The notes beneath the pieces were generated by a model, which saw nothing but the letters and a program-made list of their open reading frames with translations, had not been told where the DNA came from and did not search any database. The translations under genes were made by a program, and so were the position numbers. Positions 2,980 to 59,033 of a stretch of 64,000 nt of DNA are shown here, piece by piece (the first letter of the stretch is position 1; every line of letters starts with the position of its first letter). Origin of the DNA: an uncultured Acidobacteriota bacterium (lineage in GTDB: Bacteria; Acidobacteriota; Vicinamibacteria; Vicinamibacterales; CAVVIG01); contig CAVWSQ010000001.1 of the NCBI GenBank assembly GCA_963757655.1, positions 742,897 through 806,896 of the forward strand. The letters run 5' to 3'.

Positions 2980-4167
2980 TCACTCGGAAGCTGGAACTGC
3001 CTGTTCGCCGACACGAAACCCGACAGTCAATACCGAGACCAGCAGCAGCACAGCGGCAGCTGAGATATACGGCGTCGATTCACCGTAGCGTTGGAGGGAG
3101 GCGTTGCCCCAGACCGGGCCCAACGTACGGCCGAGGCTCTCGACCGCGCTCGCTGCGCCCTGCACCCGTCCCTGCTCCTCACCGCGCGCCACCAGACTGA
3201 CCAGACTCGACACCGTCGGATGCCCGAAGCCGATGCCGAGCGCCAGCGGCACGAGCGCCAGCGCGAACAACGTGACGGTATGCGCCATCGCCGCGGCGAC
3301 GAGACCGACTGCACCGAATCCCAATCCCATCCTAAACGTCGGCTTGTCGCCGAGCCTGCGCACCACGTGTCGAATGAACCCGCCCTGGATCACGGCGCCG
3401 AGCAGGCCGAACGCCGCGAAGAAGTAGCCGGTCTGCGACACCCCGAATCCAAAGCGACGCGCCACGAACAGCGAAAAGGTGGTCTGGAACGTCGCGAAGG
3501 CGAGCCAGTAGAAGAAGTCGATGGCGAGAATTCTGCGGATCGGCGCGCGCTGCAGCAGATCGGGCAGGTAGCCGAACGGATTGCCGGTGCCGGCCCGCGC
3601 GCGATGCACCGTTTCCGGCAGCCACAGCCACGCCATCACCGCAGCCACGAGCGTCAGACCGGCGGCCGCCCAGATCGGCGCGGTATAGCTGATTCCCGAG
3701 AGAACGCCGCTGAGAGCCGGGCCGAGGATGAACCCGAGGCCAAACGCCGCACCGATGATGCCGTAGGCGCGCGCACGATCTTTCGGCTCGGTGATGTCCG
3801 CGACGTAGGCGCGCGCCGTCGAGATGTTGCCACCCGACAGGCCGTCGACGATGCGCGCGGCGAAGAGCATGACCACGGTGTGCGCGACCGCCAGCATGAC
3901 GAAGCTGACGACGGTACCCGCCAGGCTGAAGATCAGGATGGGACGGCGGCCCACGCGGTCCGACAGATCGCCCAGCGCCGGCGCCGCCACCAGCTGGCAG
4001 AGGGAGAACGCCGCGAACAACAGGCCGATGACGAGCGGCGAGGCGCCAAAGGTTTCCGCGTAGAACGGAAGCAGTGGGATGATGATCCCGAACCCTACGA
4101 GGTTGACGAAAATCGTCAGGAAAATGATCAGGAGCGGGCGCGTCACGAGTCTCGATATTCTATACAA
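2980..4167 (-). CDS. MFS transporter (TCR/Tet-like drug:H+ antiporter type)
   Basis: 12-TM-like hydrophobic profile. Motifs IIIPLLPFYAETFGASP and GDLSDRVGRRPIL (MFS motif A). TTG start at 4167 or GTG at 4146. Confidence 0.85.
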   Translation of the reverse strand: MYRISRLVTRPLLIIFLTIFVNLVGFGIIIPLLPFYAETFGASPLVIGLLFAAFSLCQLVAAPALGDLSDRVGRRPILIFSLAGTVVSFVMLAVAHTVVMLFAARIVDGLSGGNISTARAYVADITEPKDRARAYGIIGAAFGLGFILGPALSGVLSGISYTAPIWAAAGLTLVAAVMAWLWLPETVHRARAGTGNPFGYLPDLLQRAPIRRILAIDFFYWLAFATFQTTFSLFVARRFGFGVSQTGYFFAAFGLLGAVIQGGFIRHVVRRLGDKPTFRMGLGFGAVGLVAAAMAHTVTLFALALVPLALGIGFGHPTVSSLVSLVARGEEQGRVQGAASAVESLGRTLGPVWGNASLQRYGESTPYISAAAVLLLVSVLTVGFRVGEQAVPASE

Positions 4168-4233
4168 TCTCCCGGCATCGTCAGATCGCAGGGATGTTTC
4201 TCCGCGCTTGCTGCGATTTCGGCGATTTCTTCT

Positions 4234-6687
4234 CTACAGATGTGATGCGAGCGGATCGTGCATCCGCTTGCCATGCTCCAGTGATGTCAGCACGATGTCG
4301 GCGGTCACCGGTGCCTTCCTGAAGATCTCCTCGCCCACCGCATCCGCGATTGCGTTCAGCACCGAACCATAGCCGGCGCCGACCGGAGGCTCGCCGACGC
4401 CGCGTGCGCCGACCGGCGTCTCCGGGTCGGCCATGCCCAACGCGACGGTGTGCATCTGGGCGGGAATGTCGAGAATGGTCAGCGGCTTGTTGTGATGGAA
4501 GCGCTTGGCGAGCGGCACGCCGTAGTGCGGGTCGTACACCCATTTCTGCTGCAGTGCGTGTCCGACGCCGAGGTTGATGCCGCCGAGCAGCTGACCGTGA
4601 AGGCTGCGCGGGTTGACGACGGTGCCGACATCGCCGACGGCGAGGAAATCGATCAGCCGTGTCTTGCCGGTCTCGAGATCGACTTCGACCTCCGCAAAGC
4701 CGGCCACGAACGAGTAGGTGTCGCCGTCATGCGGATAGCTGTCCTTCGCCACGCCCATCAGCCCCAGACCGGCGAGCGCGGCCGCCGACTTCCTGGTCAT
4801 CGCGTGGATGTCGGGCGGCAGCTCGTGACCGTCGAACTTCCCGCCCAGCGCGATTGCGCGGCCGGCGGCTTGCGCATAGGTCAGGCCGCGCGACGGGTTG
4901 TCGCGGCGGTGGACGCGCTCGTTCCCCAGCACGTAGTCGCCTGGGGCGCCGCCCAGATCGCGCGCCGCCAGCTCCTGAAGCTTCGAGCGCGCGTCGACCG
5001 CGCCGGCCAGATTGGCCCGCGTCATCGCGTGCGTCGTCTGGCTGCCCACCGACATCGCCGACCACGGAATGTTCTTCGCGGTGCTGCCCCAGTTGACGAC
5101 CACCTTGTCCCAGGGCATGGCCAGCGCGTCGGCCGCGACGCGAGCGAGGTCGATGCAGGAATGTGTGCCGAGGTTGCCCACGCCGGACTGGACGTAGAGC
5201 TTGCCGTCGGGCCGCAGCGTCATCAGGCTGTCGTATCCAATCGACCCCGAGCCATGCGGCCCCACCGCCACACCGACGCCGCGGACCTTCGTTCCCTGGC
5301 GCTGTCCGGAGCGCGCCTTGCGTTCGTCCCACTTGAAGAGCTCGGCGCCGCGGTCGAGCGCCTGCTTGACGAACGCGCTGGTGATGTGTCCGCGCTGCCC
5401 GTTTGGCCGCACCGGACCGTAGAGCGCCTTTCCTTCGGGCGAATTGATCCGGCGGATCGCCACCTGATCCAGGCCGAGCCTCTTGGCGGCCTTGGTGACG
5501 ACCGGTTCCATGATCGCGTTCGCCTGCATCGGCCCCGGCGAACGCTGCTGCGATCGCGGCGGCGTATTGGTCAGCACCGCGAGGCCGCGCCAACGCATCG
5601 CGAGCGGCTGCCAGATGAGCGAGGCGGCGAGCGCCGCTGACCGGTAGTCGCCCATCGGCCCGTACGATCCGTTGTCCTCGACGATGAAGAGATCGAGCGC
5701 GATGATGCGGCCGTCGGCGCGGAAGCCCGCTTTCGCCCGTCCGACCATCCCGGTGCGCGCCCGGCCGATATAGTGCTCCTCTTCGCGGCTGACGCGCATC
5801 ATCACCGGCGCCCCGGCCTTCTTCGACAGCAGCGCCGGGATCACCATCGAAACCGCGCCGGCGCCTTTGCTGCCAAAACCGCCGCCGCAATACTCGCTGA
5901 TGAGCACGATGTTCGACGCGTCCATCCCGAGCCAGCTTGCGAGCGGATCGAGGGTCCGGGCGACGCTCTGGGTCGAGCCATGCAGAAACAGCTTGCCGTT
6001 CTGCCAGTACGCCATGGCGCTCCGCGACTCCATCGGCTGATGTCCGGTGGACTGGACGACGAAGGTCTCATCGATGACGACGGCGGCGCTCTTGAAACCG
6101 GCGTCCAGATCGCCGTAGGCCCATTGGTCCGGCGCCTGTCCCATCGGCAGACCGCCTTCGGGAGCGCTCGCGAAATCCTGCGCCGTCCATTTCAAGACCT
6201 GCACTCTCGGCCGTGCCGGCGGCGCCGCGCCGGCCGCTGGTGCGGGCGGTGGTGTGATCCAGACGTTGCCGTCGAGGCGGGCGTTGGCGCTGCCCGGCTT
6301 CAGACTCTCGACCGGATCGGTCACGAACGGGAGCGGCTCAAGATCGACGTCGATGCGCTCGATCGCCTCCGCGGCAGTAAGTTCGTCAACCGCCGCCAGC
6401 GCGAGAATCGGTTCGCCCTGGTAGAGCGGCTCGTTTGTCAACGCCCGCTCGGCGCCGTGCAAATCGGGCAGGTCGTCGGCCGTGAGGATCGCCTTGACGC
6501 CCGGCATGGCGAGCGCCGCACGGGTGTCGATGCGCCGCACGCGCGCGTGCGGCATCGGGCTGAGCAACAGCTTGGTGAACAGCATGCCGTCGACACGATA
6601 GTCCTCGGCGTATTTCGCGCGGCCGGTGACTTTGGCGACGAGATCGGGCGGCGTGTAGTTCTGGCCGACGAGTGATTGATCAGACAT
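4234..6687 (-). CDS. Xanthine dehydrogenase/aldehyde oxidase family molybdopterin-binding subunit (orphan, no adjacent Fe-S/FAD subunits)
   Basis: Start at MSDQSLVGQNYTPPDLVAKVTGRAKYAEDY (ATG 6687). Contains GGGFGSKG and the typical a/b-hammerhead and Mo-binding domain sequence. The ORF-track N-terminal 30 aa are discounted. Confidence 0.9.
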   Translation of the reverse strand: MSDQSLVGQNYTPPDLVAKVTGRAKYAEDYRVDGMLFTKLLLSPMPHARVRRIDTRAALAMPGVKAILTADDLPDLHGAERALTNEPLYQGEPILALAAVDELTAAEAIERIDVDLEPLPFVTDPVESLKPGSANARLDGNVWITPPPAPAAGAAPPARPRVQVLKWTAQDFASAPEGGLPMGQAPDQWAYGDLDAGFKSAAVVIDETFVVQSTGHQPMESRSAMAYWQNGKLFLHGSTQSVARTLDPLASWLGMDASNIVLISEYCGGGFGSKGAGAVSMVIPALLSKKAGAPVMMRVSREEEHYIGRARTGMVGRAKAGFRADGRIIALDLFIVEDNGSYGPMGDYRSAALAASLIWQPLAMRWRGLAVLTNTPPRSQQRSPGPMQANAIMEPVVTKAAKRLGLDQVAIRRINSPEGKALYGPVRPNGQRGHITSAFVKQALDRGAELFKWDERKARSGQRQGTKVRGVGVAVGPHGSGSIGYDSLMTLRPDGKLYVQSGVGNLGTHSCIDLARVAADALAMPWDKVVVNWGSTAKNIPWSAMSVGSQTTHAMTRANLAGAVDARSKLQELAARDLGGAPGDYVLGNERVHRRDNPSRGLTYAQAAGRAIALGGKFDGHELPPDIHAMTRKSAAALAGLGLMGVAKDSYPHDGDTYSFVAGFAEVEVDLETGKTRLIDFLAVGDVGTVVNPRSLHGQLLGGINLGVGHALQQKWVYDPHYGVPLAKRFHHNKPLTILDIPAQMHTVALGMADPETPVGARGVGEPPVGAGYGSVLNAIADAVGEEIFRKAPVTADIVLTSLEHGKRMHDPLASHL

Positions 6688-12945: not shown

Positions 12946-13011
12946 GGCTCGATTATGCGAAGCACTGAGAGGGTGGGAACGTGAAAAGAGTGTGACAGGC
13001 GGGACGGGGCG

Positions 13012-13039
13012 GATTGCAGATTGCGGATTGCAGATTACG
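13012..13039. repeat. Heptanucleotide tandem array (GATTGCA)x4
   Basis: gattgca gattgcg gattgca gattacg read directly. Lies in the divergent intergenic region, 19 nt upstream of the kinase GTG start. Same unit as the array at 28477-28540. Confidence 0.9.
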
Positions 13040-28476: not shown

Positions 28477-28540
28477 AATTGCAGATTGCAGATTGCAGAT
28501 TTCAGATTGCAGATTTCAGATTTCAGATTTCAGATCAATT
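28477..28540. repeat. Heptanucleotide tandem array (GATTGCA/GATTTCA), about 8-9 units
   Basis: attgcag attgcag attgcag atttcag attgcag atttcag atttcag atttcag atcaattcag read directly. Starts 15 nt upstream of the dihydropyrimidinase start codon (minus strand). Confidence 0.95.
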
Positions 28541-51185: not shown

Positions 51186-52506
51186 GCTGGAGATTGTAGT
51201 GTACCTGGCTTGACGCGAGCACCGGCAGCTCCGAATCGATCGTAAAGACCACCTGCGCATGTGCGGCGCGCAGGGCGCGACAGACCTCGTCGGGATACGC
51301 CGCGCGCGCGAAGATGAACCCGAGGTAGCTGGCGCCTTCGGGCAGCGGCACGAGCAGTTGATCCGGCTTGGCGGTGATGTGAATCGCGTCGACGCCAGGC
51401 ACGGCGCGCGCCTCATCGACACCGTCCACTCCGCGCAACGTACCGCGCTTCGGAATCGGAATCATCATGACGCCGCTGGCGCAGTCCTCACGCTGGTAAG
51501 GCGCCGGGTCTTCGCCGAGAGCATGACACAGCAGGATCTCCTCGAGGGAGATTGCAGCGTGCGGAGGGCTGAGTGCAGAGTGGCTGCTGCCTGTCGATCC
51601 GAATCGGAGCGCGCGGGCGCACAGGCCGCCGATCGGTCGGGCCGCGACTTCCAGCACAAAGACACCGTCCGGATTCACGCGACACTCGGCATGAACCGCA
51701 CCGTGCCGCAGTCCGAGCGCGTCTGCCGCGCGCGCCACGCCGTCCACGATCGCGCGCTGGGTTTCGGCGCTGGCGGACGAAGGCGTCACGTAGATGGTTT
51801 CCTCGAAGAACGGGCCGTCCAATGGATCGGGCTTGTCGAAGATCGCGAGCGTCTGCAGACGCCCATGCTGCAACAGACCTTCGAGGGCGAACTCGGGGCC
51901 GGGAATGAAGCCCTCGACCAGCGCCGCCGCGTGGGCGTCGTTGCGCTCGACGCGAACGTCGGGCTGCCGCATCAGCGACTGCAGCCGCCTGAAGGCGCGA
52001 GCCAGACCCTGCTCATCGTCGGCACGCATGACACCGCGGCTTCCCGACAGGGCCACGGGTTTCAGCACGCACGGGTAACTCAAGGATCGACGGTCGATGG
52101 CTGCAAGCCCGTCGGCGATGGCTGCAGGCGTGAACCACGGCACCGGAAGACCGGCCTGTCGCAGACGCTCGCGCGTGAGTTGCTTGTGCCCGGCCGCCGC
52201 CGCGGCTTCGGGGGAATGCCATGGCAGGCCCAGGCGTTCGGCAACGCGCGCGGCGATAACCGTCGGCCGGTCTCCAACGACCAGCAGACCATCGAGACGC
52301 CGGATTGCCGCCGACTCGAGGATCGCGGCCACCGCTGCGTCCTCCTCGTAAAATCGGATCGGAATCGCGTGGTCGTGCCACGGATCCTCGATGAGGTGAC
52401 AGCGATCGGTCGCGAAGACCAGCTCCACCTGGAGCCGGGCCGCAGCCTCACCGAAAGCGCGCGTCTGGTACCCAGTGGTGGTGGCGAGAATCAGGACACG
52501 CGGCAT
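51178..52506 (-). CDS. ATP-grasp domain protein (carboxylate-amine/L-amino-acid ligase-like)
   Basis: PreATP-grasp N domain MPRVLILATTTGYQTRAF. YPCVLKPVALSGSRGVMRAD, VEGFIPGPEFALEG, HAECRVNPDGVFVLEVAARPIGG. Confidence 0.85.
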   Translation of the reverse strand: MPRVLILATTTGYQTRAFGEAAARLQVELVFATDRCHLIEDPWHDHAIPIRFYEEDAAVAAILESAAIRRLDGLLVVGDRPTVIAARVAERLGLPWHSPEAAAAAGHKQLTRERLRQAGLPVPWFTPAAIADGLAAIDRRSLSYPCVLKPVALSGSRGVMRADDEQGLARAFRRLQSLMRQPDVRVERNDAHAAALVEGFIPGPEFALEGLLQHGRLQTLAIFDKPDPLDGPFFEETIYVTPSSASAETQRAIVDGVARAADALGLRHGAVHAECRVNPDGVFVLEVAARPIGGLCARALRFGSTGSSHSALSPPHAAISLEEILLCHALGEDPAPYQREDCASGVMMIPIPKRGTLRGVDGVDEARAVPGVDAIHITAKPDQLLVPLPEGASYLGFIFARAAYPDEVCRALRAAHAQVVFTIDSELPVLASSQVHYNLQHG

Positions 52507-52561
52507 CGTCGTTCGACGTTCGTCGTTCTCCGTTCGTCGTTCAAAGTCGTCGTTCGTCGGT
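52507..52561. repeat. Heptanucleotide tandem array (CGTCGTT family, = GTCGTTN)
   Basis: cgtcgtt cgacgtt cgtcgtt ctccgtt cgtcgtt caaagt cgtcgtt cgtcggt, beginning at the base after the ATP-grasp start codon. Shares the 22-mer cgtcgttcgacgttcgtcgttc with the 58201 array. Confidence 0.9.
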
Positions 52562-52579
52562 GGTGAACCACGAACGACG
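52548..52579 (-). terminator. Strong hairpin just after the extended radical SAM stop (terminator-like, weak U-tract)
   Basis: Minus-strand CGUCGUUCGU-GGUUCACCACCG-ACGAACGACG: 10-bp perfect stem, and the loop can add 3 more pairs. Followed by ACUUUGA. One arm belongs to the heptamer array. Confidence 0.35.
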
Positions 52580-52581
52580 CG

Positions 52582-54021
52582 CTACACCAGAGCCAACTGC
52601 TCCGCATCCGGCTCCGCTCAACAGTACCAGGGTTCATTCAGATAGGGAACCGTCGCACGGGCTCGCGCCGGGCGGGTATCGGGCGGACAGGGTAACCCGC
52701 TGCGCTCGTGTGCGAGGGTCCGGACCTGCGCGAACAACCGGCGACGATCGGAAGTCAGCCGGCTCCCGACCAGGGTCATGACGTCGTGCTGGAGCTCGTC
52801 GACTCGGGGATCGGGATGCGTCCAGCGGTAGGTCAGCGTCGATTCGTCGAAAGTCCCGAGATGCGCGCGCATCTCGGCCACCTCCAGCAGCCGCGAACCC
52901 TGCGGAACCAGCAGGCGAATCGCCAGTTGAATGGGCGCCACGTGATCGACGAGATCGAGGGCGTCGATGGTGTCGAGCAGATCGCAGTACGACGCCAGCG
53001 TCAACCACGGGTGAAACGCGACGAAGGTTGGCACCAGCGTGACGCCGGCGTCGCGGCATAGCGCGACCGCCTCCAGGAAACCGGCCCGGGTGTGGCCTTT
53101 GTCGAACCGGCGCAGCACATCGTCATCGATCGATTCGACCGCGCTGGTCACGAAGGCGCAGCCGGCGGCGGCAAGCTGCGGCACTAGGTCGCGATGCTGC
53201 AACAGATGTTCGACCTTGATCGTGACGTCGAAGCTGACCCCGGGGTGCGCCTCGTGCAGTCCCGCCACGATCCGCATGGCGTGGGTGGGGCCATTGAAGA
53301 AATCCGGATCGCCGAAGGTGATGTGCCGCGCGCCGGCCGCGACCTGTGCGGCGACATCGGCCGCGACGATGTCGGCCTGCACGATCCGAAACTGCCCGGC
53401 GTAGACCGGCACCACAGGGCAATGCCGGCACAAGTGGCGACACCCGCGGCTCGCCTCGGTATAGCCGACCAGCCGGCGCTCGCCGCCCGGCATCTGCAAC
53501 GTCGCGTATTTCGAAAGCGGCGGCAGCCCGGTCCGATCGGGAACGAGAAAGTGAATCCGTGGCAGCGGAGGCCTCTCGGCAACAACCGCCGAGTCTGCGG
53601 GGAGCGCTGAGACGCTGTGGCTCTGCGAGCGTTGCGGTCTCCGCGGTTTTTTCTGCGTCGTGTCGTCCGCCCACGCCGCCAGACCCTCCTCGAACTCTCC
53701 GCCGAAGATTTCGTCCACCCCGAGGCGGTGCAGCCAGCCGGCATTGAGCGGCGCGTACAAGCCGAACGCGCAGATGCGCGCCGGCGGGTTCTCCCGCCGC
53801 GTGGCCGCAATCAGCGGGCCGGCCAGTCGCGTCGCGGTGTGCATCGGCAGATGAAACCCGACCAGGTGCGGCCCGCGCAGGTTGTCGAGGCTCAGCTTCT
53901 CTTTCGCGGCATCGAGGCACGCGACCGTCCATCCGTCGCTGCGCAGCCATGCCGCAGCCGACGCCAACCCGAAAGGCTGGCGTCCCATCTCGTAGGTGCT
54001 GATCAGAAGCGCGCTGCGCAT
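52582..54021 (-). CDS. B12-binding-domain radical SAM enzyme with C-terminal Cys-Sec tail (CUAEP-type); UGA 52618-52620 read as selenocysteine
   Basis: The ORF-track product ends ...TVPYLNEPWYC at TGA. In-frame continuation: TGT TGA GCG GAG CCG GAT GCG GAG CAG TTG GCT CTG GTG TAG = C-U-A-E-P-D-A-E-Q-L-A-L-V-stop. Radical SAM motif CRHLCRHC. B12-binding-like N domain. Confidence 0.75.
52588..52616 (-). promoter_or_regulatory. Candidate bacterial SECIS hairpin immediately 3' of the UGA
   Basis: RNA nt +2..+30 after UGA: CGGAGCC-GGA-UGC-GGA-GCA-GUU-GGCUCUG. That gives 7 bp (one G-U), two G-U pairs plus one A-G mismatch, 3 bp, and a GGA apical loop 15-17 nt after UGA. Hand-folded only. Confidence 0.4.
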
Positions 54022-54027
54022 GCCGTC

Positions 54028-54038
54028 ACAATCATTGT
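54028..54038. promoter_or_regulatory. Palindrome ACAAT-C-ATTGT in the 29-bp divergent region between the radical SAM and POT genes
   Basis: Read directly at 54028-54038. It is the only symmetric element in the very short intergenic region 54022-54050. Confidence 0.3.
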
Positions 54039-54050
54039 ATTCTTCGGGCC

Positions 54051-55541
54051 ATGTCTGTTGTTGCGGACGCGCGCCCGTACGATCACGCGTTCTTTGGTCA
54101 CCCGCGCGGGCTCTCGGTGCTCTTTTTCACCGAGATGTGGGAGCGGTTCAGCTACTACGGCATGCGTGCGCTGCTCATCCTGTTCATGACCGCACCCACC
54201 ACCGCAGGCGGACTCGGATTCGACACCGGCGTGGCTGGCGCGCTCTACGGCCTGTACACGTCGATGGTGTATATGACCAGCCTGCCTGGTGGATGGATCG
54301 CGGACCGCCTGATCGGTCAGCGCCGCGCCGTGCTCTACGGCGGCATCATCATCGCCTGCGGCCATTTCGCGATGGCGGTGCAGTCGCTCACCACCTTCTA
54401 CATCGGGCTCACCCTCATCGTGCTCGGCACCGGCCTGCTGAAGGGCAACGCCGCGGTGATCGTGGGTGCCCTGTATGCGCCGCAGGACGCCCGCCGCGAC
54501 GCCGGCTTCTCGATCTATTACATGGGCATCAACCTCGGCGCGTTCATCGCGCCGCTGGTCTGCGGTTATCTCGGCCAGCGGGTCAACTGGCACATCGGAT
54601 TCGGCGCCGCTGGCGTCGGCATGGTGCTCGGCGTCGTGCAGTACCTCTTCGGCGCGAAGTACCTCGGCGACGCCGGGCTCCACCCGACGCCGGCTGCCTC
54701 TCCAGCGGCCGCGGCCGCGTTGCAGACGCGCACCATCATGGTCGGCGCCCTCAGCATGGCGGCCGTGATGGCGCTCGGGTTCGGGATGTATTCCGGCGCC
54801 GTGCCGATCACCGCCAAGCAGATCGCCGATGCCGCCGGCTGGGTGCTGGTCGCGATCGTCGTGGTGTTCTTTGCGTGGCTGTTCCTGGCGGCGGACTGGA
54901 CTCCGGCGGAGCGGCGGCGGCTGTATGCCATCGCGGCGCTGTTTGTCGCCTCCCTGATCTTCTGGTCTCAGTTCGAACAGGCCGGCTCGACGCTCAATCT
55001 GTTCGGCGATCGCAACACCCGCACCTCGGTGTTGGGGTGGTCGTTCCCCAGCAGCTACTACCAGTCGCTGCAGCCGCTGTTCATCATCACCTTCGCGCCG
55101 ATCTTCGCGTGGGTCTGGGTCCGCCTCGGCAGACACGACCCATCGAGCCCGGCTAAGTTCGGGCTCGGGCTGTTGTTTGTCGGCAGCGGGTTCGCGCTGC
55201 TGGCGGTGGCCGCGCTGCTGTCGGCCCACGACGTCAAAGTTTCGCCGTGGTGGCTCGTCGTGACCTACCTGCTGCACACCTGGGGCGAGCTCTCACTCAG
55301 CCCTGTCGGTTTGAGCGCGACCTCGAAGCTGGCGCCCGCACGGGTGGTCGGCCTGATGATGGGCGTCTTCTACCTGGCGATTTCCGTCGGGAACTTCATC
55401 GGCGGACGCCTGGCGTCGCTCTACGAATCGATGCCGCTGGCCCGCCTGTTCGGCGCCATCGGTGCGGTCGGTCTGGTGGCCGGCCTGGTGATGTTCGCGC
55501 TCACGCCGCCGATCAAGCGGCTGATGGGTAACGTAAATTAG
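54051..55541 (+). CDS. POT/PTR2 family proton-dependent di/tripeptide transporter
   Basis: FFGHPRGLSVLFFTEMWERFSYYGMRALLILFM (ExxERFxYY motif), GGWIADRLIGQRR, 14-TM pattern. Confidence 0.9.
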   Translation: MSVVADARPYDHAFFGHPRGLSVLFFTEMWERFSYYGMRALLILFMTAPTTAGGLGFDTGVAGALYGLYTSMVYMTSLPGGWIADRLIGQRRAVLYGGIIIACGHFAMAVQSLTTFYIGLTLIVLGTGLLKGNAAVIVGALYAPQDARRDAGFSIYYMGINLGAFIAPLVCGYLGQRVNWHIGFGAAGVGMVLGVVQYLFGAKYLGDAGLHPTPAASPAAAAALQTRTIMVGALSMAAVMALGFGMYSGAVPITAKQIADAAGWVLVAIVVVFFAWLFLAADWTPAERRRLYAIAALFVASLIFWSQFEQAGSTLNLFGDRNTRTSVLGWSFPSSYYQSLQPLFIITFAPIFAWVWVRLGRHDPSSPAKFGLGLLFVGSGFALLAVAALLSAHDVKVSPWWLVVTYLLHTWGELSLSPVGLSATSKLAPARVVGLMMGVFYLAISVGNFIGGRLASLYESMPLARLFGAIGAVGLVAGLVMFALTPPIKRLMGNVN

Positions 55542-55592
55542 TCGTTAGTCGTTAGTCGTTAGTCGTTGGTCGTTGGTCGTTGGTCGTTGGTC
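55541..55592. repeat. Heptanucleotide tandem array (GTCGTTA)3(GTCGTTG)4
   Basis: Read directly. The first G is the last base of the POT stop codon TAG. The array ends 7 nt before the LigD-PE ATG at 55599. Confidence 0.95.
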
Positions 55593-57444: not shown

Positions 57445-58201
57445 GGTGGGCATGGTGCTCTCCGACGCCGTGCAGACGCTCGAACGAGACCTCCGCCGCA
57501 TCTTCGGCAGCCGTTTCCAGGCGCTGGTCATCTATGGCCAGCGCCGGCAGACCGGTCGACAGGCGCCGGGCGATCGCCACGACGGACATGCCGGACCCGA
57601 CGCGCCACTCCTTCACACGCTTGCGGTGGTCGACGCGATGACTTCCGGCGATCTGGATGCCTGCGCCGTGCGCATCGACGCGTGGCACGAGGCCGGTCTG
57701 GCCACGCCGCTCCTGATCGCGGACCACGAGTTCGAGCAGTCGCTCGACGCCTTCCCGCTCGAGTTCGGCGCCATCCTCGCCGACCACTCGGTGGTTGCCG
57801 GCGTGAGTCCGTTCACCTCGCTCGCGGTCGATCCCGCCGACCTCCGGCGCGCATGCGAGGTGCAGGCACGCAGTCATCTACTGCACCTGCGGGAAGGCTT
57901 GCTCGAAACGCGCGGGCGCGCCGATGCCCTGGCCCTGCTGATCGTGCGCTCCGCCGCTGCGTTCGCGGCGCTGGTCACGAGCATCGCGGGGCTCGAAGGG
58001 CATGCCACCGACGATACCGCGTCGGCGGCTCGCCACGTGGAGCGCACGCTCGGCACGCCGAACAGCGCGATTGCCGAAGTCACCCGGCTGGCCGACGCTC
58101 ACGACATCTCCTCGGCGGACGCCGAACGTCTGTTCGGGCCCTACCTCGACGCGGTCGATCGGCTGGTTCAGTACGTCGACGGATGGACGCGTGCGAGTTA
58201 G
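57443..58201 (+). CDS. Hypothetical protein (helical; possible degenerate nucleotidyltransferase-like fold)
   Basis: Coding-like composition with no recognisable catalytic motif. Start ATG 57443 or 57452. First gene of the TPM/LemA operon. Confidence 0.6.
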   Translation: MVGMVLSDAVQTLERDLRRIFGSRFQALVIYGQRRQTGRQAPGDRHDGHAGPDAPLLHTLAVVDAMTSGDLDACAVRIDAWHEAGLATPLLIADHEFEQSLDAFPLEFGAILADHSVVAGVSPFTSLAVDPADLRRACEVQARSHLLHLREGLLETRGRADALALLIVRSAAAFAALVTSIAGLEGHATDDTASAARHVERTLGTPNSAIAEVTRLADAHDISSADAERLFGPYLDAVDRLVQYVDGWTRAS

Positions 58202-59033
58202 TCGTTTGCCGTTCGTCGTTCGACGTTCGTCGTTCGCCGCCGGTCTGACGCTGGCGCTGACCGTCCTCCTTGCCGGCGTCGCCGGCTCCCAGCCCAAGGC
58301 GGCTCCCCTCCCTGAGTTGACCGCGCCGGTCAACGACTTCGCGAAGGTCATCGATGCCGAGAGCGCCAGCGCCCTGGACCGGATGATTCGGACGCTCCAG
58401 ACGGCGACCGGCGACATCGTGGTCGTTGTCACCGTGCCGACCATCGAGCCCTACGGCGACATCAGCCAATACGCCGTCAAGCTGTTCGCGAACAACGGCA
58501 AGGGCATTGGACAGAAGGGCAAGAACAACGGACTCCTGATCCTGCTGGCGCTGAAAGAGCGCAGCGTGAAGGTCGAGGTCGGCTACGACCTGGAGCAGTG
58601 GATCACCGACGGGTTCAGCGGTGAGACCAGCCGCGAGGTGATGGCGCCGTTCTTCCGCGACGGGCGCTATGGAGAGGGACTGCGCGCTGGCGCCGAGCGC
58701 ATCATCGGCCGGATCGCGCAAGGGCGCGGCGTCACCCTCGACGGCGTGCGGGTACCGCGGCAGAGCTCGCGCCAGCGCGGCTCAGGCATCCCTGGCTGGC
58801 TCCCGATCGCGGTGTTCCTCGCCATCCTGTTCCTCAGCCGCATCGGGGGCGGTGGTGGACGCCGCGGCCGCTTCTGGAACGGCGGCGGCTGGTCGAGCGG
58901 CGTCGGCCCGTTCGGCGGCGGCTTTGGCGGTGGCTTCGGCGGCGGCGGTGGCGGCGGCGGCGGATTTGGCGGCGGCTTCGGCGGCTTCGGCGGTGGGAGC
59001 AGCGGCGGCGGCGGTGGCGGCGCCAGTTGGTAG
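58191..59033 (+). CDS. TPM-domain (YgcG-like) protein with TM segment and Gly-rich tail
   Basis: Signal peptide, then LTAPVNDFAKVIDAESASALDRMIRTLQTATGDIVVVVTVPT...LLILLALKERSVKVEVGYDLE (TPM). TM WLPIAVFLAILFL. Tail GGGFGGGFGGGGGGGGGFGG. GTG 58191 or TTG 58206 start. The N-terminus is encoded by the heptamer array. Confidence 0.8.
   Translation: MRVSRLPFVVRRSSFAAGLTLALTVLLAGVAGSQPKAAPLPELTAPVNDFAKVIDAESASALDRMIRTLQTATGDIVVVVTVPTIEPYGDISQYAVKLFANNGKGIGQKGKNNGLLILLALKERSVKVEVGYDLEQWITDGFSGETSREVMAPFFRDGRYGEGLRAGAERIIGRIAQGRGVTLDGVRVPRQSSRQRGSGIPGWLPIAVFLAILFLSRIGGGGGRRGRFWNGGGWSSGVGPFGGGFGGGFGGGGGGGGGFGGGFGGFGGGSSGGGGGGASW
58201..58235. repeat. Heptanucleotide tandem array (GTCGTTN)x5
   Basis: gtcgttt gccgttc gtcgttc gacgttc gtcgttc. 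Begins at the last base of the upstream TAG stop, the same TTAGTCGTT junction as at 55538-55546. Confidence 0.9.

Follow-up and report, generated by a model that had tools for sequence, protein, structure and literature searches.

Predicted recoding of UGA as selenocysteine in a radical SAM protein with a CUAEP/CCAEP tail from an uncultured Acidobacteriota bacterium, and its relationship to ArsL

A UGA codon within the reading frame of a radical SAM gene

The DNA analysed here, referred to below as the window, is a stretch of 64,000 nucleotides from an uncultured Acidobacteriota bacterium of the order Vicinamibacterales (assembly GCA_963757655.1, contig CAVWSQ010000001.1, positions 742,897 to 806,896 of the forward strand). 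On the minus strand of the window is a gene for a radical S-adenosylmethionine (SAM) enzyme of the CUAEP/CCAEP-tail family, NCBIfam NF040546, in which an in-frame UGA codon at 52618-52620 is almost certainly read as selenocysteine (Sec). Comparison of orthologous sequences shows that this codon is decoded, that Sec and cysteine alternate at its position, that a hairpin of the selenocysteine insertion sequence (SECIS) type is present and that the protein is a member of NF040546; recoding and family membership together are held with very high confidence. As judged from sequence, the CUAEP/CCAEP family is a sister family of ArsL, its nearest characterised relative. An earlier reading made from the sequence alone (the original prediction) had proposed that the UGA is recoded, and the proposal is now supported by the alternation of TGA with Cys codons, the conserved AEP residues that follow, the codon periodicity of the surrounding sequence and a covarying hairpin.

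The open reading frame (ORF) list closes the gene at the TGA, giving a product of 467 aa (ORF 52618-54021, minus strand). The minus strand reads ...CCC TGG TAC TGT TGA GCG GAG CCG GAT GCG GAG CAG TTG GCT CTG GTG TAG, and the C-terminus of the read-through protein is ...VPYLNEPWYC-U-AEPDAEQLALV; the coordinates of TGA and TAG, the tail and the CRHLCRHC cluster motif had all been predicted exactly as they read in the sequence. The start codon agrees with that of an orthologue (P0001, MRSALLIS...), and the Pfam model Radical_SAM matches the protein with 47.9 bits against a cutoff of 29.5. No further recoded TGA was apparent at the other in-frame junctions between ORFs of high third-position GC content in the window. 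The features of the gene and of its neighbours are listed in Table 1.

Conservation of the codon and of the tail that follows it

Orthologous loci were gathered from contigs of one genome per species in two sets. The first, retrieved with the protein of the window, is almost entirely from Acidobacteriota (Vicinamibacterales, Terriglobia and Bryobacterales), and the second, retrieved with the homologue of Thermomicrobium roseum, covers Chloroflexota (Thermomicrobia and Ktedonobacteria), Nitrospirota, Rokubacteria, Gemmatimonadota, Poribacteria and other Acidobacteriota. Among 78 complete C-termini in the first set, the column of the UGA holds TGA in 69 and TGC or TGT in nine, with AEP next in 77; the 79 complete C-termini of the second set have TGA in 58 and TGC or TGT in 21, with AEP next in 78. 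Taken together, 157 loci from at least six phyla have TGA in 127 cases and a Cys codon in 30, so that every one of the 157 has one or the other, an alternation that by this sequence comparison far exceeds chance. Such an alignment of orthologues had been proposed as a check on recoding, and orthologues that end after WYC with unconserved sequence downstream had been named as the case that would speak against it; the opposite was found, AEP coming next in 155 of the 157.

The tail beyond the UGA consists of 11 residues in 46 of the 69 Sec forms of the first set, and across the family 11 to about 29 conserved residues lie beyond the Cys-Sec pair. For the 47 sequences with a tail of 11 codons, the column entropies at codon positions 1, 2 and 3 are 0.43, 0.44 and 1.13 after the UGA, compared with 0.42, 0.22 and 1.10 over the 12 codons before it and 1.89, 1.90 and 1.94 past the real stop: third positions vary while first and second positions are fixed on both sides of the UGA, and the pattern is lost past the real stop. 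The AEP residues are written with every synonymous codon (GCG, GCC, GCA and GCT; GAG and GAA; CCC, CCG, CCT and CCA). The codon-position pattern and the synonymous AEP codons are signs of purifying selection on the translated sequence, and therefore exclude a genuine stop.

Four Thermogemmatispora loci (L179, L181, L187, L194; L numbers denote individual loci) encode Cys forms with tails of about 34 residues containing extra Cys and CC motifs, e.g. CCAEPTRGQFGSCRSPANPRQSAAAASSDCCGVGH, which suggests extra thiolate ligands where Sec is absent.

A covarying hairpin downstream of the UGA

The general bacterial SECIS model is a stem-loop a short distance past the UGA with a G in its apical loop. 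The original prediction had folded the 29 nucleotides after the UGA into a long, almost continuous hairpin with a G-rich apical loop at +15 to +17. This hairpin, with its GGA loop, is indeed the minimum-energy fold of the window's sequence, but it is poorly conserved, with 67.6% of cells paired and a covariation of 0.124 in an alignment of 70 Sec-form sequences (A1, gap-free); it was rejected as the conserved element on this alignment, in which a control slid by one position (+1) scored higher (0.177 versus 0.124). A hairpin of SECIS type does follow the UGA and covaries in two alignments, as a shorter element than the one named: a stem of six base pairs that begins 13 nt past the UGA and a loop, AGUUG, at +20 to +24 from the UGA, with a folding energy of -7.1 kcal/mol when taken by itself. 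Its position and its apical-loop G fit the general bacterial model.

In A1, the stem is formed by columns 20-25 with columns 31-36, and the 5-nt loop between them reads AGKUN, its A and G being invariant. Within class A of this alignment (47 sequences), each of the six pairs is present in 42 to 47 of the sequences, and compensatory changes occur. The pair 20-36 is CG in 31 sequences, AU in 10 and GC in 1; 21-35 is AU in 25, GU in 11 and GC in 7; and 23-33 is AU in 36, GC in 5, GU in 4 and CG in 1. The second class (23 sequences) has the hairpin displaced by one nucleotide, with an AGUU loop. In the nine Cys-form orthologues the same positions are only 29-41% paired, and to judge from these sequences the hairpin is absent or weaker in most Cys-form genes. 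An independent alignment of 50 Sec forms from other phyla (A4) has the identical six pairs, 88.1% paired and with changes on both sides in five of the six (for example 24-32: CG 23, UA 19, GC 2), and its covariation of 0.442 compares with at most 0.235 for slid controls. The Sec forms of both sets fold more stably than the Cys forms (Mann-Whitney p = 0.002 and 0.009). A hairpin unconserved in orthologous genes, which would have spoken against recoding, is thus contradicted by the covariation of the short hairpin in both A1 and A4.

The support for a SECIS element comes from comparative data and not from thermodynamics; the 66-nt region folded as a single sequence gives z = -1.17, which is not significant. 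Rfam, searched at the gathering threshold over the whole window and at a permissive threshold over 52450-52750, returned only noise (mir-1471 and RAGATH-25, E about 3), and it contains no curated model for this SECIS.

Selenocysteine machinery in related genomes

ARAGORN found no tRNA-Sec in the window, in 60 loci or, subsequently, in all loci, and selA, selB and selD were found neither by NCBIfam and Pfam scans of about 45 window ORFs nor by tblastn with the E. coli proteins. Indirect evidence on Sec capacity in related lineages is positive. Selenoproteins are on record in Acidobacteria and Chloroflexi (Zhang et al. 2006, PMC1794560). In two acidobacterial loci (L198 and L227), selD adjoins the pair formed by the UGA-containing radical SAM gene and an L-amino-acid ligase gene (described below), and is divergent from it. 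This selD (in L198 at 3305-4318; TIGR00476, 365 bits) reads TGA where E. coli SelD has its catalytic Cys17, as do all 80 of the selD genes retrieved from Blastocatellia/Pyrinomonadaceae (L246-L325); on this sequence evidence, SelD of these bacteria is itself a selenoprotein. One metagenome-assembled genome (MAG), MAG146, has both selD and a UGA-form radical SAM gene, on separate contigs (L265 and L237).

The proximity of selD to the operon was weighed as a sign of a functional link and then downgraded to synteny of a subclade, selD being divergent beside the ligase-radical SAM pair in only 9 of the 80 Blastocatellia loci; in 12 of the 80, it is beside an RclA/MerA-like FAD-dependent disulfide oxidoreductase. 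A scan for acidobacterial sel genes with Gemmatirosa SelD gave matches only in Proteobacteria and Bacteroidota, and one with Blastocatellia SelD gave Blastocatellia only; Thermomicrobium was not among the organisms listed when SelD and SelA were compared with plasmids by tblastn.

Family membership and state of annotation

The read-through protein, with Cys entered for Sec, matches the equivalog model NF040546.1, "CUAEP/CCAEP-tail radical SAM (seleno)protein", with 616.8 bits (cutoff 500, E = 2.2e-185), residues 5-477 of 479 aligning with profile positions 2-467 of 468. The original prediction had named this family and suggested a profile search with the 479-aa protein, and the name proved correct. 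The gene is a member of NF040546 with no difference in kind, and its recoding is already catalogued and not new. NCBI already gives the top database match (91% identity, from a Vicinamibacterales MAG) the name of this (seleno)protein. Truncation of the tail by the ORF list, which had also been pointed out, is general: each of the best 120 proteins in a large protein collection (97% query coverage) is closed at the UGA after ...EPWYC. Routine gene calling thus still truncates the protein and loses the residue that is most likely catalytic.

The residues invariant among 78 members are the three cluster cysteines, C288, PMHTATR (59-65), FGDPDFxNG and E463-P-W...C467-U/C468-A-E-P. The family is large, with 552 clusters at 50% identity in a representative library (E <= 1e-30) and at least 540 relatives in each of two scans by genome, and occurs in abundant aerobic soil and thermophilic bacteria. 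It has been placed among the few selenoproteins with a CU motif, its structure and function being described as 'not well known' (Haft & Gwadz, 10.1101/2022.07.06.499078). That report is the sole relevant mention of CUAEP/CCAEP in the searchable literature; the family name and accession are absent from a 2026 review of prokaryotic selenoproteins, and none of the conserved partners described below (L-amino-acid ligase, YggX-type protein and DUF169) appears in the searchable literature on the family.

Cultured hosts of the Sec form are Thermomicrobium roseum, Thermosporothrix hazakensis and Ktedonosporobacter rubrisoli, and Thermogemmatispora has a natural Cys form. On the megaplasmid of T. roseum DSM 5159 (NC_011961.1, 796522-798027; L081, 9932-11437), the RefSeq coding sequence is cut at the same UGA. 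The DNA past its end continues as TGA-AEPLEDPSGPVASQVRMVDQPLR-TGA, with a GGACCC-GUC-GGGUCC hairpin, and therefore this cultured strain carries a truncated annotation of a Sec form.

Architecture and predicted structure

The AlphaFold2 model of the protein (mean predicted local distance difference test score, pLDDT, 77.9; predicted template modelling (TM) score 0.79) begins with an alpha/beta domain of Rossmann-like fold (residues 1-120), after which come a disordered linker (123-156), a radical SAM barrel and a helical C-terminal domain. From residue 452 onward the pLDDT is below 50, and the C-terminal tail is accordingly predicted to be flexible or disordered. The CxxxCxxC cluster motif recognised in the original prediction is present, invariant in 78 members and aligned with the cluster cysteines of ArsL. 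A fourth core cysteine, C288, could to judge from its conservation be a third ligand next to C467 and U468.

Foldseek neighbours are AprD4 (the top match), OxsB, TsrM, MgmA, MiaB, CysS and TokK. The class-B-type radical SAM enzymes among them (AprD4, OxsB, TsrM, MgmA, CysS and TokK; TM 0.58-0.66, E down to 1.5e-15) share the Rossmann-like N-terminal domain and are the best structural neighbours, but differ in sequence, with just 13-19% identity. Searching the PDB by sequence found no solved relative, the best match being 9ccb with E = 0.0099. The domain had been predicted to resemble a B12-binding domain, which holds at the level of the fold (AprD4, OxsB, TsrM) but not for the Pfam B12-binding model PF02310, matched with 18.3 bits against a cutoff of 32.1. 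The top neighbour, AprD4, is a diol dehydratase and not one of the listed cobalamin-bound methylases. Because the Pfam match is below threshold, ArsL has been reconstituted without added cobalamin and AprD4 heads the list, the use of cobalamin by this enzyme is doubtful.

Relationship to ArsL

The second-best family for the protein is ArsL (NF040542, RCCLKC-tail radical SAM protein), at 281.6 bits. ArsL of a Pseudomonas amygdali plasmid has 34% identity over residues 5-416, and when Sec is entered as Cys, the CC of its terminal CCLKC falls on C467-U468 in the alignment. The two proteins have in common the two-domain architecture, the position of CxxxCxxC, an F-x-D-x-D-F-F-N motif and a thiol-rich C-terminal tail. 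[quoted passage not shown] The shared FxDxDFFN motif is a hint, suggestive only and drawn from sequence, of ArsL-type cleavage of the C-gamma-S bond of SAM into methylthioadenosine and an ACP group.

ArsL forms the C-As bond in arsinothricin biosynthesis by transferring the ACP group to arsenite, and its RCCLKC tail binds As(III); once the tail is removed, SAM is still cleaved but only 2-aminobutyrate is made, C-As bond formation is abolished, and the Fe and S content is unchanged (10.1101/2024.02.01.577332). All three cysteines of the tail bind arsenic, and the reaction has been suggested to pass through an organometallic intermediate with an Fe-C bond (10.64898/2026.04.29.721666).

Gene neighbourhood

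An ATP-grasp L-amino-acid ligase gene is directly downstream of the radical SAM gene on the same strand, both in the window and in 61 of the 67 loci with enough flanking sequence (median gap 53 nt), including all eight Cys-form loci. Among solved structures, that of BL00235 (3VOT, E = 1.5e-40) is nearest to the ligase, followed by BacD; BL00235 makes Met-Gly and Met-Met dipeptides (PMC6920838). Third on the same strand, 67 nt past the ligase gene, is the gene for a YggX-type protein, which adjoins the operon in 57 of 80 acidobacterial loci and is immediately upstream of the radical SAM gene in 47 of the 79 loci of the second set, mostly those of Chloroflexota. Since it is kept in two phyla with different gene orders, the link between YggX and the radical SAM gene survives rearrangement between phyla.

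Table 1. Features of the radical SAM selenoprotein gene, its neighbours in the window and DUF169 genes at orthologous loci
Feature	Coordinates	Strand	Basis
Radical SAM selenoprotein (predicted), coding sequence, 479 aa, complete	52582..54021	-	ATG 54019-54021; true stop TAG 52582-52584
In-frame TGA, residue 468 (predicted Sec), next to Cys467 (TGT 52621-52623)	52618..52620	-	TGA/Cys column in orthologues and codon-position entropy
11 codons past the UGA (AEPDAEQLALV); A469-E470-P471 invariant in family	52585..52617	-	Comparison of orthologues
SECIS-type hairpin: 5' arm 52599-52604 (CGGAGC), loop 52594-52598 (AGUUG), 3' arm 52588-52593 (GCUCUG)	52588..52604	-	Covariation
CRHLCRHC, CxxxCxxC (C194, C198, C201), [4Fe-4S] cluster motif of radical SAM enzymes	53419..53442	-	Residues 194-201
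Cys288 codon, family-specific fourth invariant core Cys	53158..53160	-	Cys in 78/78 members; Leu in ArsL
N-terminal Rossmann-like (B12-binding-type) domain, residues 1-120, with PMHTATR 59-65	53662..54021	-	AlphaFold2, Foldseek
ATP-grasp L-amino-acid ligase, 442 aa	51178..52506	-	Pfam ATP-grasp_4, LAL_C2, ATPgrasp_N; 75 nt past TAG
YggX-type Fe(2+)-trafficking/oxidative-damage-protection protein, about 86 aa	50850..51110	-	PF04362, 112 bits; NF003817, 113.4 bits (cutoff 74)
POT-family di/tripeptide:H+ symporter, divergent neighbour	54051..55541	+	TIGR00924, 426.6 bits; PF00854
DUF169 gene, Terriglobia loci	L020 4543-5262; L059 9505-10221; also L062, L073, L076		
DUF169 gene, Nitrospirota loci	L204, L212, L216, L219, L221, L230, L235, L236, L243, L245		

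Between the radical SAM gene and the ligase gene, five Terriglobia and ten Nitrospirota loci have a gene for a DUF169 protein (PF02596, about 238 aa), with the conserved cysteine motifs PSACxFW, HYNCPIG, GRPACAVIP and GCxGAR, a possible third component of the pathway. In two Bryobacterales loci, a 441-aa class I SAM-dependent methyltransferase (L041 9439-10764 and L057 9384-10709) replaces the ligase, a pairing that echoes that of ArsL with ArsM. An aminotransferase and an MFS transporter are encoded beside the radical SAM gene in Thermomicrobia loci, and in one Blastocatellia clade it is followed by a gene for an Nfu-type Fe-S carrier.

The POT-family symporter gene is adjacent in only 25 of 80 loci, all from close relatives, and its adjacency may be synteny only. 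The divergent start codons of the radical SAM gene (54021, minus strand) and the symporter gene (54051, plus strand) are 29 nt apart (54022-54050), so that either the promoters fall within the adjacent coding sequences or a start codon of the two genes is mis-assigned.

Tandem arrays of 5-8 copies of unrelated heptanucleotides (ATTGCAG, TCGTCGT, TTAGTCG, GTTCGTC) occur in the window at 28478-28535, 52506-52559, 55538-55592 and 58197-58236, and also at 13009-13036; their positions are gene boundaries, frequently right next to a start codon. Arrays of 7-9-nt units of other sequence, in up to 18 copies, are also present in the spacer past the radical SAM stop codon in 16 of 78 orthologous loci. 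The repeat between the radical SAM and ligase genes was rejected as an operon-specific element, similar heptamer arrays being present at other gene boundaries of the window, and the arrays look like a genome-wide intergenic feature of these Acidobacteriota. From about 4200 to 36300, the window contains a large cluster for purine and pyrimidine catabolism with two sets of xanthine-dehydrogenase-type molybdoenzymes, urate hydroxylase, allantoinase, dihydropyrimidinase, a PreA-like dehydrogenase and an NCS1 permease. A LysR regulator is encoded there as well, with a 'selenium metabolism-associated' LysR model as its best NCBIfam match, at 153 bits and below the cutoff of 250.

Proposed function

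The enzyme most likely works like ArsL, because it belongs to a sister family that shares its N-terminal domain, radical SAM core, F-x-D-x-D-F-F-N motif and thiol-rich tail. On the comparative evidence, the hairpin of six base pairs with the AGUUG loop, 13 nt past the UGA, serves SelB as a bacterial SECIS during its translation, and the product has a flexible C-terminal tail, ...EPWY-Cys467-Sec468-AEP.... The Cys-Sec pair, possibly with Cys288, would bind a substrate atom of a soft, thiophilic kind (from a metalloid or chalcogen species), and the tail would swing it to the active site, where it would receive the ACP group. This would yield a 2-amino-4-(X)-butanoate, an analogue of arsinothricin or of methionine (methionine being the amino acid ACP-S-CH3), which the co-transcribed L-amino-acid ligase would join to a second amino acid. 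The YggX-type protein, or an Nfu-type protein in some lineages, would provide iron for the oxygen-sensitive cluster in these aerobic hosts. By analogy with ArsL, this mechanism with its substrate-carrying tail is put forward tentatively, as plausible but somewhat short of probable in its own right; the overall explanation, which combines it with recoding, is judged reasonably probable, as a compromise between its parts.

Several observations weigh against this explanation. Cleavage of SAM of the ACP type is unpredictable from sequence. The protein falls short of the NF040542 cutoff of 450, and its tail has C467-U468 only, without the third of the three tail cysteines of ArsL. No ars genes (arsM, arsQ, arsN or resistance genes) are near this gene or its orthologues. 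The pathway past the radical SAM step is not uniform, because the ligase is absent or replaced in Thermomicrobia and in two Bryobacterales loci, and the housekeeping synteny of the genes in hundreds of species makes a core metabolite a better fit than a toxin-like antimetabolite. As for recoding, selA, selB, selD and tRNA-Sec are missing from the window and from the flanks of the Vicinamibacterales loci, and Sec decoding in this genome is therefore inferred.

In the widest form of the proposal, CUAEP/CCAEP proteins would constitute a second and far wider branch of ArsL-type ACP transferases, forming a new carbon-heteroatom bond in an amino acid that the ligase builds into a dipeptide: the tail would capture selenide, sulfide, arsenite or antimonite for the synthesis of a methionine-like non-proteinogenic amino acid, possibly a seleno- or arseno-amino acid. 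This is speculative and rather unlikely. If it were true, an unrecognised small-molecule pathway would be common to aerobic Acidobacteriota, Chloroflexota and Nitrospirota, and if the analogy with ArsL is true, the family would offer a new reaction forming a carbon-heteroatom bond and a new metabolite. Experiments on the function are made feasible by the Cys-Sec tail with its proposed substrate-holding role, by the conserved partners (ligase and iron-trafficking protein) and by the several hosts available in culture. What is added here to the catalogued recoding is a revised SECIS structure that is supported by covariation in different phyla, the placement of the family as a sister of ArsL with the model of a substrate-carrying tail that results from it, and the naming of conserved ligase, YggX and DUF169 partners and of cultured hosts of Sec and Cys forms.

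Alternative explanations

The tail might instead be a redox shuttle, as the original prediction had suggested, in which Cys467-Sec468 would cycle between selenylsulfide and selenol/thiol in the manner of thioredoxin reductase and move reducing equivalents to or from the radical SAM site, where they might, for instance, resolve a radical intermediate or a disulfide of the substrate. In favour of such a shuttle are a vicinal Cys-Sec pair on a tail predicted to be flexible and, in two loci, an FAD-dependent pyridine-nucleotide-disulfide oxidoreductase encoded beside the selD, ligase and radical SAM cluster. Sec commonly replaces redox-active Cys (PMC1794560). However, the pair is not C-terminal, having the conserved AEP and eight or more residues beyond it, the protein is without a reductase domain, and no thioredoxin-type partner is conserved beside the gene. 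CU motifs are also rare and clustered in proteins that handle heavy metals or organometallic compounds (Haft & Gwadz, 10.1101/2022.07.06.499078), and in ArsL the homologous tail serves to bind substrate and not as a redox relay. The analogy with ArsL makes the substrate-carrying tail better grounded, because ArsL uses its Cys-rich tail to hold arsenite for ACP transfer, and the shuttle appears unlikely. Common to the two models is a flexible tail by which some cargo reaches the active site.

A less likely alternative still, and an improbable one, is that a second Fe-S cluster, of the kind found in MiaB, LipA or BioB, is coordinated by C288, C467 and U468, or that these residues carry a persulfide or perselenide as a sacrificial donor, for the insertion of S or Se by canonical 5'-deoxyadenosyl radical chemistry. 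Three invariant Cys or Sec residues are present outside the CxxxCxxC motif, MiaB is among the fold neighbours, and the Fe-S support proteins YggX and Nfu are conserved neighbours. On the other hand, the tail is predicted to be disordered and not part of a cluster-binding domain, and we know of no precedent for Sec as a ligand of an Fe-S cluster. The tail of ArsL binds no extra cluster, its truncation leaving the Fe and S content as it was (10.1101/2024.02.01.577332).

The remaining alternatives concern the UGA itself. Its decoding as Cys or another residue by an opal suppressor or a tRNA-Cys resembling tRNA-Sec (of the allo-tRNA or selC* type) would be compatible with the 30 orthologues in which Cys is functional at this column, and allo-tRNAs of Acidobacteria have been proposed as nonsense suppressors, with selC* tRNA-Cys present in other phyla (PMC5389517). 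Such decoding is nevertheless very improbable, given that the UGA forms specifically have a covarying hairpin at the distance of a SECIS, the arrangement of UGA and hairpin recurs in Chloroflexota and other phyla, related Acidobacteriota have a Sec-containing SelD, and the window and the loci yielded no suppressor tRNA. That the TGA is a genuine stop of a 467-aa protein and the similarity downstream is non-coding (such as a conserved terminator or a regulatory hairpin) is effectively refuted: every automated gene call ends at the TGA and the hairpin could in principle be a transcriptional or translational signal, but codon-periodic conservation spans exactly the length of the extension, AEP is written with all its synonymous codons, the Cys-form orthologues translate an identical AEP tail, and the NF040546 profile aligned through residue 477.

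Comparison with known systems

The rare Cys-Sec dipeptide also occurs in other CU-motif selenoproteins, namely HgcA variants, the MerB-like SaoL family and MerT variants, in which the motif has been interpreted as a site interacting with an atom of a heavy metal (Haft & Gwadz, 10.1101/2022.07.06.499078). These proteins have unrelated folds and gene neighbourhoods, and the motif alone links them to the CUAEP/CCAEP family.

Mammalian thioredoxin reductase is a flavoprotein disulfide oxidoreductase with a GCUG tail in which the Cys-Sec pair is penultimate. It resembles the protein described here in having adjacent Cys and Sec on a flexible C-terminal extension, but belongs to another superfamily, the present protein being without a flavin or NADPH domain, and its chain ends with GCUG, whereas at least 11 residues including the conserved AEP lie beyond the Sec of the CUAEP tail.

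ArsL, the closest characterised system, differs from the CUAEP/CCAEP family in having Leu in place of the invariant C288 and in its tail, R-C-C-L-K-C, which ends the protein, whereas C-U-A-E-P is followed by at least eight residues. The loci differ as well: ArsL is encoded in an arsQ-arsL-arsM-arsN locus, while the partners of the CUAEP/CCAEP enzymes are an L-amino-acid ligase, YggX and DUF169.

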